Shown here in pieces: positions 1,842 through 51,538 of a stretch of DNA of 64,000 bases. Origin of the DNA: Eledone cirrhosa (taxonomy: Eukaryota). The notes under the pieces were generated by a model, which was not told the DNA's origin, did not search any database, and saw nothing but the letters and a program-made list of their open reading frames with translations. The stretch is taken from positions 362,328,001 through 362,392,000 of the forward strand of contig OZ024740.1 in NCBI GenBank assembly GCA_964016885.1. Reading direction: 5' to 3'. Numbering within the stretch: position 1 is the first letter of the stretch; every line of letters starts with the position of its first letter. The translations under genes and the position numbers were made by a program.

Positions 1842-4028
1842 GTTCTTCTGGTTTAATAATTTCACAAAGTTTTACCAATAGAGAGAGAGTCGGTTTCTAA
1901 CATAGACACAAGACTCTCTCATTGGAACTTACACAACATCAACTAGGTAGATATGTATGTATGCATGTGTAGATATGGATGTTATTGTATGTGTGGATGT
2001 GGATGTTTTGAGTTGTATATGTGCATGTGTATATGCTTTGTATCTGTACATGTGTATATGCAGTTATTAGATGCAGGATTTTTGGAATGTTTTACATATT
2101 TTTACTGGATTGTACTTGTAATTTCCTAACTAGTTGTGTTCTTTCTGTTCCTGTGAAGCCTAGCTTCTCAGGATTTGTATTGAGGCAGTTACTAACATAC
2201 CCCAGTGCCCCAATAATCACAGTCATAAATCTGAAGGTGTAATCAGGGTGGAGTATCTGCAGATTTCTCATCAGTTCTGCATAAATATTCTCCTTTTCAC
2301 TAATCTTTGATATTATATTGGCATCTGCTGGGCAGCTAATTTCCACTACTGTGCATGTTTTCTTCTCCCTGTCCCATATAATAATATCTGGTCTGTTATG
2401 CCTGCACTTTATTGGGGTTTTTACTGGAACATTCCACGAGGACTCTTTCATATTATGTACATGGATATCTTCCACATTACTGTAGCTTTTAATGTGTTTA
2501 TTATCGGGGCTATCTTTTTTACGAACTGCATTGTACAGTGTTTTGGCCACTATATTGTGCCTCATAGGTAGATAGTACCGCGATGACATCTTTGGACAGC
2601 TGCTGATGACATGGGTGATATCCTCGATGTTAGTTCTGCAGAGTCTGCACTTGTTATCACATCTAGGTGTTTTGCCTGCATCCCTATCTCTTTTGTGAAT
2701 CGGGTATTTCGTGCTAATCTCCTGTTTTGGGATTGCAAAAGCGTATCCTTCAAAGTGGGAGCCAATATAGCGGTTGTTGGTCCAAGATAGACTACTTTCC
2801 TTATCTATATTACTCTCACTCTGGAGCTTCCTGGCAACATATCCATGCATGATTTTTTGCTGATAGGCATGCAGTTTTTCATCCATGGATTCACTGCGAT
2901 ACTGCTGAGCAACATCCATGGGTGTGTTTTTGGTTATCACACAGGGAATATCTCTCAAGGAGTTCCTTCCCAACACTCATGATCTTATCTGTTTCATGCA
3001 GATAGACTTGCTCGAGAAGCGGGCTCCTACACTTCGAGGTTCGTAGATATTGTCGGAGAGATATGATGCAACATTCAAATGTTGTCTGGACTGATGTTAG
3101 GCCTCTGCCTCCCTGCTTACGTTTCAAGTAAAGGCGGTCTATGTCACTGTTGATGTGGAAGTTTCTGGTGTTGTTCAGTATTTTTCGAGTTCCAACATCA
3201 ACTGCTCGGATTTCGTCTATCGTCCAATTGAGTATTCCAAACGCTGGTGTTAGGACAGGCACAGCAAACACATTGTGAGCCACTGTTTTGTTTTGTGCAG
3301 AGAGTTCCGATGACCAAATCTTTCTTAATCAGGTGTAGTATTCTCTGGTTACGCTTTCTTTATTACAGATACCATTATAGGATATGTTCTCATCTATCCC
3401 CAGGTATCTGTAGCAGTCCTCATCAGACATCGGTGAAAGTTAGACCATTGATGACAATGTTGCTAGATTGGGTTGTTGTTTTTCCCCGCTTTACAGTCAT
3501 GTATGAGCATTTATCTTGGCCAAACTCCATTCCTATATCCTTTGAGAACGTTGTAACCAGGTCAAAATTTTTCTTCATCCCATCCATGTTCTTGGCATAG
3601 AGTTTCAGATCGTCCACAAAGAAGTTATGGGTTAGGTTCGTATTTCTGTCCTCCTGTGAGCCAATGATGTATCCCTCACATTTCTTGAGCAGAAAGGACA
3701 AGGGGTTTAATGACAAGATGAACAATATCACAGAGAGACTGTACCCCTGAAATATACCCCTGCAATATTTTATTTTATCAGTGAAAATAGAGTCCTCCCT
3801 CTCTGTCTTTAACCCTAGGATAGTAGCCCAAGAAGAAGACAGCCTCTCTATGGCTCTGACAATAATGTCTGGGACTTTAGCAAGTTGGAGGGCCTCTATC
3901 ATCCAAGAGTGGGGAACAGAATCGAAAGCTTTCCTGTAGTCCAGCCAGACTAGTCATATTCCTCCTAAGTTATCGTACCTTCGACATCGCAGTTTTGTTG
4001 ATTAGGAGTTGTTCAGCACATCCCCAAA
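1842..4028 (-). mobile_element. 5'-truncated R4/Dong-clade (RLE) non-LTR retrotransposon, copy 1
   Basis: RT motifs GIFQGYSLS and FVDDLKLY, CCHC knuckle CRLC..HVISSC, restriction-like endonuclease RPDII..EISCP..K..Y; flanked on both sides by (TATG)n; closely matches 49357-51540. Confidence 0.9.
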
Positions 4029-16171: not shown

Positions 16172-16205
<34 letters not shown>

Positions 16206-16514
16206 GAAAGTTTGTATTTCTAAAGAAACCCAGTATGTTTACAGAAAATATTTAGGAAGCCGTAGCTATGCAAACACTGGAGCTAACACCCTCTGGTGGT
16301 GTCCAGTAGAAGCAAGGGGGACAACCGTCTATGCATTTCAGGCTTGACTGGCCTTCTTCTGGACGGTCCCTCCCACCGCTTGCAACTGCTGGACCTGAGA
16401 ACAGTCGAGAATATATAGTTTTCTTGTCTGTGTAAATGAGGTGATTAATCTCATTTGCATATGAAGCTGCATAAGTTGGCTCAACTTATAATAGAATAGA
16501 AATAGGATTTTGCT
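16206..16514 (-). mobile_element. HHR-containing non-coding repeat, family A (retrozyme/pLTR-like), copy 1
   Basis: Between TA tracts; homologous to 39414-39850; contains octamer, TATA and HHR on the minus strand. Confidence 0.75.
16324..16367 (-). ncRNA. Type I minimal hammerhead ribozyme, core variant (U4A)
   Basis: ACCGTC-CAGAAGA-AGGC cagtcaa GCCT-GAAA-TGCA-TA-GACGGT. Confidence 0.7.
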
Positions 16515-16542
16515 TATATATATATATATTATATATATTATA

Positions 16543-16806
16543 TCACTCGATATGCAAATTAGGCTGCTCAGCCGTTAATATGCATAAGGAAAGTATATAC
16601 TTTCAGACGTTCAACCATCTGGCAGGAAGGTATACGATGCTGACGATAGCTAATAAGCTTGAAACTAGTACATCGTTCCTGTGTCAGTGTTGAACAAAAA
16701 GGTGACGTGGTTGCCTAAACACTGTACGGCGTAATTCGGGCTGTTTGTTTGTTTACAAACAAACAAACCGAACATTATAATAAATGTTCGGTAAACCGAT
16801 ACGTGC
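16543..16806 (+). mobile_element. HHR-containing non-coding insert, family B
   Basis: Between TA-rich tracts; octamer ATGCAAAT 16552-16559, TATATA 16594-16599, HHR 16634-16676, 3' hairpins 16743-16792. Confidence 0.65.
16634..16676 (+). ncRNA. Type I minimal hammerhead ribozyme
   Basis: ACGATG-CTGACGA-T AGC taataa GCT T-GAAA-CTAG-TA-CATCGT; helix I extendable by CAGGAA/TTCCTG; predicted cleavage 3' of 16670. Confidence 0.85.
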
Positions 16807-16981
16807 ATATATATGTGTGCATGTATGTATATATATACATACTACTGTACGTCTGTATACATATATGTATGTACGTATACATACATACTTACATTTAAGT
16901 AAGTGCCGTACTAAGAGTGAGAAATGAAATTTTGTTTCATTCTATTCCATTTATATTATATATATATATATATATATACAT

Positions 16982-38881: not shown

Positions 38882-38948
<67 letters not shown>

Positions 38949-38956
<8 letters not shown>

Positions 38957-39339
38957 TAAGAGGAATTCCAACTTTGTCTGATTTACTCGTTTTATTTACA
39001 ATCCTTTAAAATTTATAATGGTATTATAATGAAATAGTATGATAGAATATTAAATTCTAAGTGTTAATTGAACAAGTACTTCCATGCTTTCGCAATCTTC
39101 AGGTTCATAATATGTGGTGACAGTCAAGTTTGCAATTTTCAACAGTTGAAAATTGCAAACTTGACTGTCACCACATATCATGAACCTGAAGATTGCGAAA
39201 GCATGGAAGTACTTGTTCAATTAACACTTAGAATTTAATATTCTATCATACTATTTCATTATAATACCATTATAAATTTTAAAGGATTGTAAATAAAACG
39301 AGTAAATGAGACAAAGTTGGAATTCCTCTTATTAATATA
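38949..39339. repeat. Near-perfect 391-bp palindrome carrying mirrored HHRs
   Basis: Symmetric about 39144; 195-bp arms with only about 2 mismatches seen; TA tracts on both sides. Confidence 0.9.
39181..39219 (+). ncRNA. Minimal hammerhead-like motif, GGAA variant (mirror copy 39069-39107, - strand)
   Basis: TGAAC-CTGAAGA-T TGC gaaa GCA T-GGAA-GTAC-TT-GTTCA. Confidence 0.65.
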
Positions 39340-39381
39340 ATCTTCTATACACAATCATACACACCCGTGTATATTTACCTA

Positions 39382-39413
<32 letters not shown>

Positions 39414-39418
<5 letters not shown>

Positions 39419-39850
39419 TTCGTATTTCCAAAGAAATACGGTTTTAGGAAGCTGTAGCTATCCAAACACCGGGGGGGGGGGGTCTAACGCCCTTTGGTAG
39501 TGTCCAGCAGAAGCAAGGGGGATAACCGTCTATGCATTTCAAACTTGACTTGCCATCATCAGGACGATCCCACCCACTGCTCGCGACTGTTGGACTTGAA
39601 AACAGCTGAGAATATATAGTTTTCTCGTCTGTGTAAATGAGGTGATTAATCTCATTTGCATATGAAGATGCATAAGTTGGCACAACTTATAATAGAAAAG
39701 AAATAAGATTTCGCTTCAAGCATAACTTTATACAATATGTATAAAAATTTCGTGTTTCTAAAGAAATACGGTTTTAGGAAGCCGTAGCTATGCAAACACC
39801 GGTGGGCTAATGCCCTCTGGTGGAGTCCAGCAGAAGCAAGGGGGACAACC
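39414..39850 (-). mobile_element. HHR-containing repeat, family A, 1.3 tandem units (330-bp period)
   Basis: AAATTTCG at 39415 recurs at 39745; homologous to 16206-16514. Confidence 0.8.
39525..39568 (-). ncRNA. Type I minimal hammerhead ribozyme
   Basis: ATCGTC-CTGATGA-TGGC aagtcaa GTTT-GAAA-TGCA-TA-GACGGT; canonical core, weak helix II. Confidence 0.75.
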
Positions 39851-44816: not shown

Positions 44817-44862
44817 TATTTTATTATGCGCATTTCAAAAACAAATATCATCAGATAAAATA
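44817..44862 (-). ncRNA. Minimal hammerhead motif with unpaired domain II
   Basis: TATTTTAT-CTGATGA-tatttgttttt-GAAA-TGCGCA-TA-ATAAAATA; in a short insert between TA tracts. Confidence 0.7.
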
Positions 44863-48369: not shown

Positions 48370-51300
48370 AGAAATTAATTCATGTATAAATATCTCTCTC
48401 GCTGAACGTATTAAAATGACAATGTTTAATAAAAAAAAAAAATAATAAAAAAAAAAAAAAAAAAAGAAGAAGTAATGAAATATTACGTGTTATTGACGAA
48501 ATAGGGGATGAATATTTACGACGGATAAAAACCCCAACATGTTGGCAAATCAACTCCTGTTTATATGCCTTAGCAACGACAGTAAAGCATTATCTTGGTG
48601 ATAGCAGAGATATTAACAAGAACAGAACACCACCAAAAATACCATCATATATAATTAAAATAGGAAAAAAGATTGCTGACTTACGAAAAACGATAGGATA
48701 TGTGACAATGCTCCTTACATGCAAACAAACACAAAAAAACCTCCCTCCTCACCAACAAAGAGTGAAAAATAAAATAGAGACGATGTTTGGTAACAGTAGA
48801 ACCAGAACTCTTCAATATAAGCTGAGCACCCTCAAACAAGAATTGAGAGCTGTTAGAAAAAAATATGAAGAACAAAATAATAAGTGTTACTGAGGCCTCA
48901 TCCCAGAAAGACATAGATTCCTTTTGGAGCAAAATATGGGGTGAAAAGAAGAATTTCAACCAAGATACAGTGGGGCTAAGAGAAATCCGAAAGAACTATT
49001 GCTCCTACACTACAACAAAAACATACAAAATAAGTGAGGGTACCCTTGAGACTGTGATAGGAAAACACCAGGAAGAGACATGATTGTCAGCTACTGGTAC
49101 AAAAAACTGATATTCTATCAGAGGTATCTTACTGACCTCTACCAACAAGTTCTTAAGGGAGATACACTTATACCAGAATGGTTAACATTAGCACAAACAT
49201 TACTGGTGCCCAAGAACAAAGACACCAACTTGGCAAAATCTACCGACCCATTGCATGCCAGAACATGATGTATAAGATGTATACAGCCTGCCTGAATCTA
49301 TTCACTGTGAAAATAATAACATCATCACAGATGAACAAGCAGCTGGAAAGAAAGGGTTTGGGGATGTGCTGAGCAACTCCCAATCAACAAAACTGCTATG
49401 TCAGAGGTGCAATAGCTTAGGGGAATATGGCTACAGTATGGCTGGACTACAGGAAAGCTTTCGATTCTGTTCCCCACTCTCGGATGATAGAGGCCCTCCA
49501 ACTTGCTAAAGTCCCAGACATTATTGTCAGAGCCATAGAGAGGCTGTCTTCTTCTTGGGCTACTATCCTAAGGTTAAAGACAGAGGGAGAGGACTCTATT
49601 TTCACTGATAAAATAAAATATTGCAGGGGTATTTTTCAGGGGTACAGTCTCTCTGTGATATTGTTCATCTTGTCATTAAACCCCTTGTCCTTTCTGCTCA
49701 AGAAATGTGAGGGATACATCATTGGCTCACAGGAGGACAGAAATACGAACCTAACCCATAATTTATTTGTGGACGATCTGAAACTCTATGCCAAGAACAT
49801 GGATGGGATGAAGAAAAATTTTGACCTGGTTACAATGTTCTCAAAGGATATAGGAATGGAGTTTGGCCAAGATAAATGCTCATACATGACTGTAAAGCGA
49901 GGGAAAACAACAACCCAATCTAGCAACATTGTCATCAATGGCCTAACTGTTTCACCAATATCTGATGAGGACTGCTACAGATACCTGGGGATAGATGAGA
50001 ACATATCCTATAATGGTATCTGTAATAAAGAACACGTAACCAGGAAATACTACACCCGATTAAGAAAGATCTGGTCATCGGAACTCTCTGCGTAAAACAA
50101 AACAGTGGCTTACAGTGTGTTTGCTGTGCCTGTCCTAACACTAGCGTTTGGAATACTCAATTGGACGATAAACAAAATCCGAGTAGTTGATGTTGGAACT
50201 CTAAAAATACTAAACAACACCGGAAACTTCCACATCAACAGTGACATAGACCACCTTTACTTGAAACAAGCAGAGAGGCAGAGGCCTAACATCAGTCCAG
50301 ACAAGATTTGAATGTCGCATCATATCTCTCCGACAACATCTACGAACCTCGAAGCGTAGGAGCCCGTTTCTCGAGCAAGTCTATCTGCATAAGATCATGA
50401 GAGTTGGGAAGGAACTCCTCGAGAGATATTCCCTGTGTGATAATCAAAAACTCACACCCAGCAGTATTGCAGTGAATCCATGGATGAAAAACTGCATGCT
50501 TATCAGCAAAAAATCATGCATGGATATGTTGCCAGGAAGCTCCAGAGTGAGAGTAATATAGATAAGGAAAGTAGTCTATCTTGGACCAACAACCGCTATA
50601 TTGGCTCCCACTTTGAAGGATACGCTTTTGCAATTCAAGAACAGGAGATTAACACGAAATGCCTGATTCACAAAAGAGATATGGATGCAGGCAAAACACC
50701 TAGATGTGATAACAAGTGCAGACTCTGCAGAACTAATATCGAGGATATCACCCATGTCATCAGCAGCTGTCCAAAGATGTCATCGCGGTACTATCTACCT
50801 ATGAGGCATGATGTAGTGGCCAAAACACTGTGCAATGAAGTTCGTAAAAAAGATAGCCCCGATAATAAACACATTAAAAGCTACAGCAATGTGAAAGACA
50901 TCCATGTACATAATATGAAAGAGTACTGGTGGAATGTTCCAGTAAAAACCCCAATAAAATGCAGGCATAACAGACCAGATATTATGATATGGGACAGGGA
51001 GAAGAAAACATGCACAGTAGTGGAAATTAGCTGCCCAGCAGATGCCAATATAATATCAAAGATTAGCGGAAAGGAGAATATTTATGCAGAACTGATGAGA
51101 AATCTGCAAATTCTCCACCCTGATTACACCTTTAGATTTATGCCTGTGATTATTGGGGCACTGGGATATGTTAGTAACTGCCTCAATACAAATCTTGAGA
51201 AGCTTGGCTTCACAGGAACAGAAAGAACACAACTAGCTAGGAAATTACAAGTACAATCCATTAATGCAACAGTAAAAATATGTAAAACATTCCAAAAATG

Positions 51301-51538
51301 TTGCATCTAATAACTGCATATAAACATGTACAGATACAAAGCATATACACATGCACACATACAACTCAAAACATCCACATCCACACATACAATAACATCC
51401 ATATCTACACATGCATGCATACATACATACCTACCTAGTTGATGTTGTGTAAATTCCAATGAGAGAGTCATGTGTCTATGTTAGAAACCGACTCTCTCTT
51501 TATTGGGAAAAAATTTGTGAAATTATAAAACCAGAAGA

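Follow-up and report, generated by a model that had tools for sequence, protein, structure and literature searches.

A candidate snRNA-type promoter upstream of the hammerhead ribozyme in retrozyme-type repeats of Eledone cirrhosa

Hammerhead repeats at the locus

The window, that is, the whole 64-kb stretch of Eledone cirrhosa DNA that we analysed, contains three copies of two repeat families, here called A and B. One copy of each stands head to head across a (TA)n tract, and a second A copy lies further along. The features read as follows, transcription starts being predicted positions.

16544..16953, + strand: family B copy, about one monomer, 5'-truncated; its end is the family's fixed 3' point, followed by (TA)n
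16552..16562, + strand: B extended octamer ATGCAAATTAG (octamer proper, ATGCAAAT, 16552-16559), predicted -72; the identical 11-mer stands at -77 in a host U6 gene (L062)
16568..16572, + strand: B PSE-like start TCAGC, predicted -56
16594..16599, + strand: B TATATA box, 34 nt past the octamer
16624, + strand: B predicted transcription start at a C/A junction, 30 nt past the TATA start; host genes start about 30 nt past TATA
16634..16676, + strand: B minimal type I hammerhead, core CTGACGA (16640-46) 46 nt past the TATA start, stem I 16634-39/16671-76, GAAA 16661-64, predicted cut after 16670; stem III is the palindrome ACTAGT
16203..16515, - strand: family A copy 1 (A1), about one monomer, head to head with B across the (TA)n tract
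16450..16460, - strand: A1 extended octamer ATGCAAATGAG (octamer proper 16460-16453), predicted -73; the identical 11-mer stands in host U6 L061 (-76) and in RNase MRP L269 (-77)
16440..16444, - strand: A1 PSE-like start TCACC, predicted -57
16412..16417, - strand: A1 TATATA box, 35 nt past the octamer; hammerhead core 56 nt later (16361)
16387, - strand: A1 predicted transcription start at a C/A junction
16324..16367, - strand: A1 hammerhead, mutated core CAGAAGA, stem III palindrome ATGCAT
39405..39850, - strand: family A copy 2 (A2), 1.3 monomers (a partial tandem), first base 3 nt past a cleavage site, (TA)n at the 3' end
39651..39661, - strand: A2 extended octamer (octamer proper 39661-39654)
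39613..39618, - strand: A2 TATATA box, core 56 nt later; predicted start at the C/A junction at 39588
39525..39568, - strand: A2 hammerhead, intact core CTGATGA (39562-39556), stem II weakened

Judged by their sequence, families A and B are repeats of the non-LTR retrozyme type, built of tandem monomers of about 315-540 nt with one minimal type I hammerhead each. The core, the three stems and the NUH triplet are present in both, and stem III is palindromic around a 2-nt loop. The hammerhead assignment is based on these core letters and stems, Rfam having given no hammerhead call for the window elements at the gathering score or at E<=10 (only chance matches driven by microsatellites). The earlier note had placed two hammerhead elements here, and its coordinates for octamers, TATATA boxes, TCA(C/G)C words and cores proved exact for the B copy and the A copies. 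The cores are intact in B and A2, but that of A1 is mutated, and the A1 hammerhead is probably inactive. It is likely that these ribozymes act as dimers, by analogy with the literature and given the palindromic 2-nt loop, although a free cofold of two B ribozymes gave no clean double hammerhead.

Both families are abundant. The B ribozyme motif had 13,433 matches in a pattern search of the 3.0-Gb genome, against none for the control, and family A gave 3,026 first-look candidates, 40 of which were scored. Ribozymes follow one another at 315-339 nt in A dimers and at 425-538 nt in B, in arrays of up to five spacings, and no ORF of 150 aa runs across the elements. The copies are single or in tandem, often with an inverted 5' piece and with (TA)n at the end; among the B copies reaching the late body, 28 of 35 end at one point, some 37 nt before the next octamer, or no more than about 10 nt away from it, and the remaining seven continue into the next unit. 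According to the accessible text of the 2020 report by Cervera and de la Pena on metazoan non-LTR retrozymes, these too are short tandem units with a type I hammerhead, no ORF and thousands of copies, a mollusc example measuring 350-390 bp, and Penelope-like elements (PLEs) were proposed as their partner (PMC7229834). Unit anatomy, hammerhead type and copy number are thus the same as in A and B; each A or B unit adds a host-matched snRNA-type layout. The same text names no promoter in the elements, its two uses of the word referring to T7 constructs.

Since each holds one complete hammerhead only, the three window copies are probably dead ends rather than sources, and their head-to-head arrangement would be best explained by a shared (TA)n target. 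Other features of the window are recorded here for completeness. A 259-nt perfect-type inverted duplication (91%, 1 nt between the arms) at 38885-39403 adjoins the 3' end of A2, and flanking sequence is duplicated in inverted orientation next to other A copies as well (L003, L008, L009). Two 2-kb non-LTR retrotransposon fragments with reverse transcriptase (RT), 94-98% identical, lie in inverted orientation 45 kb apart (1870-3951 and 49435-51511).

The shared layout and the promoters of host snRNA genes

The word that A and B have in common is longer than the octamer first reported. It reads ATGCAAAT(G/T)AG, followed after exactly 5 nt by TCA(G/C)C, and from this TCA to TATATA there are 26 nt in B and 27 nt in A. 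A C/A junction lies exactly at TATA+30 in both families, its two columns being invariant among the A copies that cover them (44 A copies aligned), and the same junction occurs in 24 of 42 short-spacing sites, many of which are B copies and not independent. The relaxed 11-mer is expected at 4e-6 per position and has three matches in the 64-kb window, all inside these elements; the plain octamer occurs 11 times. Genome-wide, ATGCWAATKAG-N30-38-TATAWA has 23,387 matches against 414 for the reversed control, a number that mostly reflects copy number, because most of the 100 matches listed are B or A copies.

We then compared this layout with the genes of the host. The loci taken were U6 (30 and 12 more), U2 (21), U1 (30), U6atac (8), U5 (20), RNase MRP (1) and U3 (12), each distinct kind of upstream region being represented once; the starts of U5 were adjusted by hand by 0-2 nt. 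All five Pol III-type representatives (three U6 types, U6atac and MRP) carry ATG(C/G)(A/T)AAT(G/T)AG at -76 to -78, TATA at -30 and G at +1. In all 14 representatives of U1, U2 and U5, YCAVY lies between -55 and -58 and a TATA-like box between -26 and -35, and the 11-mer is found in none of them. In U3, an octamer variant, GTCA and TATA are present in 10 of 12 loci; where positions were measured (5 of the 12), ATGTAAA(A/T)T lies at -71 to -74, TCA(T) at -54 to -57 and TATA at -32 to -29. With TATA set at -30, the octamer and the TCA read -73 and -57 in A, and -72 and -56 in B. U3 is therefore the host gene with the closest register to A and B, which have nearly the same one. The similarity between U3 and the elements is moderate (z 3.6-4.0 for L310 and 1.3-2.4 for L318), and U6 L061 scores equally against U3 L310 (3.6). 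As regards U6 and MRP, the 11-mer is identical but stands 4-5 nt nearer to TATA in A and B. The earlier note had suggested an snRNA-type promoter, with the reservation that the spacing was more compact than in vertebrate U6. This reservation falls away, as the U6, MRP and U3 genes of the host are equally compact, and the resemblance to host snRNA promoters that it had asked for is found.

The agreement is less close in the PSE-like segment, whose word is TCAGC or TCACC in the elements and TCAGT or TCAT in the host. On a PSE matrix built from the 14 host Pol II snRNA genes (U1/U2/U5), B scored -4.6 (background tail p=0.006) and A -16.0 (p=0.10), as against 4.3-20.9 for host genes left out one at a time; families C and E scored -5.6 to 3.0 (p 0.0003-0.008), also under all the host leave-one-out values. 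The match to the host Pol II PSE would thus be modest for B and weak for A. Further upstream, U1, U2, U3 and U6 share a distal motif, (T/G)A(C/T)(C/T)TCCCTT, at about -252 to -290, for which U5 and MRP genes gave no match within 300 nt. A motif scan found none in B, so that the elements differ from U3 in this respect, and barely a match in A, whose score of 12.3 compares with 17-23 at nine sites of the host and 10.6 at the tenth. We rejected the match in A as promoter evidence, the same bases being ribozyme stem I.

According to these comparisons, we propose, at a probability of roughly 0.6, that the octamer, the PSE-like TCA and the TATA box, placed in the register of host snRNA genes, act as the element's own promoter, probably for Pol II, and survive by way of a circular or multimeric template. 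If the promoter works, Pol II is favoured over Pol III at about 3 to 1. An A at +1 and a TCA in the U1/U2/U5/U3 register point to Pol II, as does the precedent of newt satellite 2 discussed below; indeed, A and B have what the host Pol II snRNA genes have, a YCA at -54 to -58, a TATA-like box near -30 and a start at A. U3 is generally a Pol II gene in animals and may be one here, although the U3 locus L310 ends in T7. However, a real promoter of this kind might recruit Pol III (type 3, U6-like) or both polymerases, which we consider unlikely, if the least so of the other readings. The exact 11-mer with TATA at -30 is confined to the Pol III-type representatives, a related class of elements has exact U6 spacing, and some dimers contain T4 at most. 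TATA is moreover the element that selects Pol III in vertebrates, according to the available part of PMC1761439, which also states that in insects both promoter classes are bipartite and the PSE sequence decides the polymerase; TATA alone cannot therefore settle the question. As a Pol III marker it was rejected for this genome, where U1, U2 and U5 also have a TATA-like box. Against Pol III stands the position of the octamer in A and B, at -73 and -72 instead of -76 to -78, together with the TCA at the Pol II register. Moreover, type 3 Pol III units should have no T5+ inside, whereas T6-T7 runs lie on the sense strand between the ribozymes in three of five natural A dimers and in most B arrays, and in both families several independent loci have such runs at a matching position.

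Some host loci depart from these rules. The other seven U6atac loci and 14 dispersed U6 copies are without the layout and look like retrocopies. Four such U6/U6atac copies (L188, L189, L195, L147) have a common repeat-derived tail end, which suggests chimeras from one LINE family. Six members of the set of 30 U6 loci (L067, L068, L070-L073, a U6 array on contig C19) have a SINE-like repeat, of the D14/D17 family of the window, between TATA and the U6 gene, so that the promoter would be separated from its gene there.

Constraint, kinship and origin of the promoter segment

We next considered how the motifs behave among copies and families, using 74 B copies picked by their ribozyme and 44 A copies picked by overall similarity. 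None of the 48 motif columns is polymorphic in at least 10% of copies, as against 45 of 446 other columns (Fisher p=0.008). The preferential conservation of octamer and TATA that the earlier note had made a check of its proposal is thus found, at the level of subfamilies, and together with the likeness to host genes it supports an snRNA-type promoter. Without the polymorphic columns, the decay of the motifs is about as expected (38 against 42.9 in B, 21 against 22.4 in A). Private decay that is near neutral, combined with subfamily variants that avoid the motifs, points to selection acting on the sources, with dead copies decaying neutrally.

The layout is also kept in diverged families, namely C (L181, L222, L244), E (L183-185), D (L182), G (L121) and a relative of A (L239). 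A and B had been called unrelated, which holds for their bodies (z about 0; z-scores from 100 shuffles) but not for their promoter segments, linked directly at z about 5 and at up to 11-13 through C and E. Since they are linked both directly and through these intermediate families, the A and B promoters are probably homologous modules and not independent. The family G repeat (L121, 1-620) comprises 1.4 units; its ribozyme is intact, it shares the promoter layout, and it lies immediately ahead of a U1 array, beside a masked stretch.

Common descent also leaves room for another view, in which the motifs are left over from an snRNA upstream region that was once captured, or are maintained by RNA structure or by RT recognition, and the RNA comes from neighbouring read-through. 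Indeed, the A, B, C and E promoters, being linked by descent, are not independent inventions, and the available text of a 2020 review by the authors of the metazoan retrozyme report states that retrozymes seem promoterless and are transcribed by read-through (PMC7761336). In B, moreover, the extended stem I starts at 16609, upstream of the predicted start at 16624, so that part of the region from TATA to the start is paired in a long stem; this predicted fold fits a read-through or circular RNA, and RNA structure may constrain that part. However, the folded stem includes neither the octamer nor TATA, the motif columns are avoided by subfamily variants, and the 11-mer, the 5-nt gap, the YCA, the TATA and the start have kept their spacing while the A and B bodies diverged beyond recognition by our score. 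We consider the view of a relic improbable, and slightly more so than that of Pol III; on sequence grounds it is likely that A and B repeats switch themselves on rather than depend on passing transcription.

The promoter might also have been inherited from an autonomous parent. A and B would then be solo pseudo-LTR ends of PLEs, and the promoter that of the parent PLE. In the accessible sources, PLE pseudo-LTRs share with A and B the minimal hammerhead with a short palindromic stem III, the partial tandems, the 5' inversions and the (TA)n targets (PMC8557442, PMC6765202), as well as a promoter in the upstream repeat (PMC8557442, PMC6765202; bioRxiv 10.64898/2026.07.22.740005), and Xenopus retrozymes are described as resembling PLE pseudo-LTRs (bioRxiv 10.64898/2026.07.22.740005). 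The insertions of A and B bear these PLE-type hallmarks, and one array of about six B-type units runs through (TA)n into a 5'-truncated PLE-like ORF on the same strand (L159/L322, contig C1, 5.54 Mb); insertion into a PLE and template switching are not distinguished at this junction. No ORF belonging to A or B was seen in the loci read, however, and no autonomous partner with an A/B-like end was found at the two PLE-like ORF neighbours inspected (L322, L323), whose 3' ends bear another minimal hammerhead-like motif and are without the octamer. By their motifs these ORF fragments are probably PLE-like; neither has a Pfam match. The octamer stands upstream of the hammerhead in 25 of 40 B and 22 of 29 A copies, and in none of 19 hammerheads of three PLE-like types in the flanks. 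Such a parentage, compatible in any case with the promoter claim, appears clearly less probable than either of the preceding views. The window itself has a hammerhead of PLE-like type at 44854 (- strand), with stem I ATTTTAT/ATAAAAT and stem III ATGCGCAT and without an upstream octamer. Finally, chance in an AT-rich genome full of (TA)n, where TATATA is everywhere and the plain octamer is far from rare, is a very poor explanation of a word as infrequent as the 11-mer, which host U6, U6atac and MRP share at a constant position and many diverged families keep at a constant spacing.

Passage through retrotransposition, precedents and a second spacing class

How could a promoter lying outside the transcribed gene be maintained in a retroelement? 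Under the reading we prefer, a promoter of the element's own, a source of at least two units would start transcription 30 nt past TATA, which places the ribozyme core 16 nt (B) or 26 nt (A) further on. The host has a 3' box, AA-N-CAGA, after U1, U2 and U5, and the best 3'-box score in a monomer is 2.6, against 16.6-23.8 for host boxes. As the monomers are without this box, transcription from a tandem source would continue into the following unit, so that the promoter too would become part of the RNA. Hammerheads, likely as dimers, would then excise a unit whose promoter lies close to the 3' end. Copying a linear unit, cleaved on both sides, from the fixed 3' point cannot yield the order promoter-ribozyme, from which we infer that the template is a circle or an uncut multimer. 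A Penelope-type RT would start at a fixed internal point on such a template and cross the cleavage site, putting the promoter back upstream of the ribozyme. By such a cycle, a promoter external to the gene, of the kind that is lost from ordinary U6 retrocopies, would survive retrotransposition. Among hammerhead copies, the octamer is retained upstream of the cut site in 57 of the 74 from B and in 32 of the 44 from A, as against none of the 14 dispersed U6 copies.

The promoter of newt satellite 2 is reportedly of the octamer/PSE type. Schistosome hammerhead repeats have a promoter with tRNA-type A and B boxes. In the parts of the literature available, newt satellite 2 is transcribed by Pol II from an snRNA promoter (PMC2220036, citing Coats, Zhang and Epstein 1994; PMC6765202), so that a hammerhead-bearing tandem repeat with an internal snRNA-type promoter is common to both systems (PMC2220036, PMC6765202). 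A and B differ by their TATA box and by a compact octamer abutting the PSE-like word; here, moreover, there are many dispersed, diverged families and two spacing classes. In the SINE-like hammerhead repeats of schistosomes, a Pol III promoter precedes the hammerhead, comes to lie 3'-terminally once the units are cleaved, and needs tandems to propagate, and PLE tandems follow a comparable logic (PMC6765202, in its accessible part). The order is the same as in A and B, with Pol III there and an snRNA-type external promoter here. Retrozymes, the snRNA-type promoter in newt and the logic of promoter then ribozyme are thus already known. What appears to be new is a putative snRNA promoter, host-matched, selected and compact, that is shared by a whole radiation of families and comes in two spacing classes. 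We found no description of a host-matched compact snRNA promoter on retrozymes in the open-licence literature, a body without most subscription journals and the 1990s newt papers. The available text of a 2026 preprint on retrozyme origin (bioRxiv 10.64898/2026.07.22.740005) has none of the words promoter, octamer, TATA and snRNA, and that of a 2026 paper on Octopus vulgaris repeats does not mention hammerhead, retrozyme or promoter.

Retrozyme RNAs are plentiful in most tissues. The starts predicted here to the base (16624 for B; 16387 and 39588 for A) make the question of retrozyme transcription directly testable, and the amphibian case of 1994 would extend to a distant animal with more than 20,000 promoter-bearing sites. 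The cycle would also show a way for a gene-external promoter to outlast retrotransposition, in a genome where U6 retrocopies fail to do so. As a by-product, we obtain the promoter grammar of host snRNA genes, that is, an octamer abutting the PSE in U6, U6atac, MRP and U3 and a TATA-like box in the Pol II genes, which is useful for guide-RNA or small-RNA expression tools.

The second class has the octamer and TATA at U6 spacing, a pattern with 994 matches against 125 in the control, some of them double-counted. Among 35 distinct long-spacing sites, YC(A/T) stands at an unchanged distance from the octamer in 30, the start is at a Y/R junction in 18, and a core resembling that of a hammerhead lies within 110 nt in 12 (background 7%); a T5+ run lies in the first 100 nt in 10 of the 35, against 2 of 42 short-spacing sites. 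The 11-mer of these families is at the U6/MRP position, and the family F promoter resembles that of U6 L062 (z 4-6). Family F is circularly permuted, which implies that its full unit must have been transcribed through its T run. We speculate, tentatively and with less confidence than we give to the promoter itself, that animal retrozymes are self-promoting units, in which a hammerhead and a circular template carry an snRNA promoter, and that they have radiated here into one class with U3/Pol II spacing (A, B, C, D, E, G) and another with U6/Pol III spacing (F and scattered elements). If so, together with newt satellite 2, the link between an snRNA promoter and hammerhead circles would be general or would have evolved repeatedly, and would explain high expression.

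U6-spaced elements with a hammerhead, their octamer near -77, were recorded at L179, L180, L205, L209, L212, L218, L220, L229-L234, L237, L246 and L248. They often close stem I with a T run, and several resemble diverged singletons, which could, from their sequence, be separate families or host small-RNA genes.
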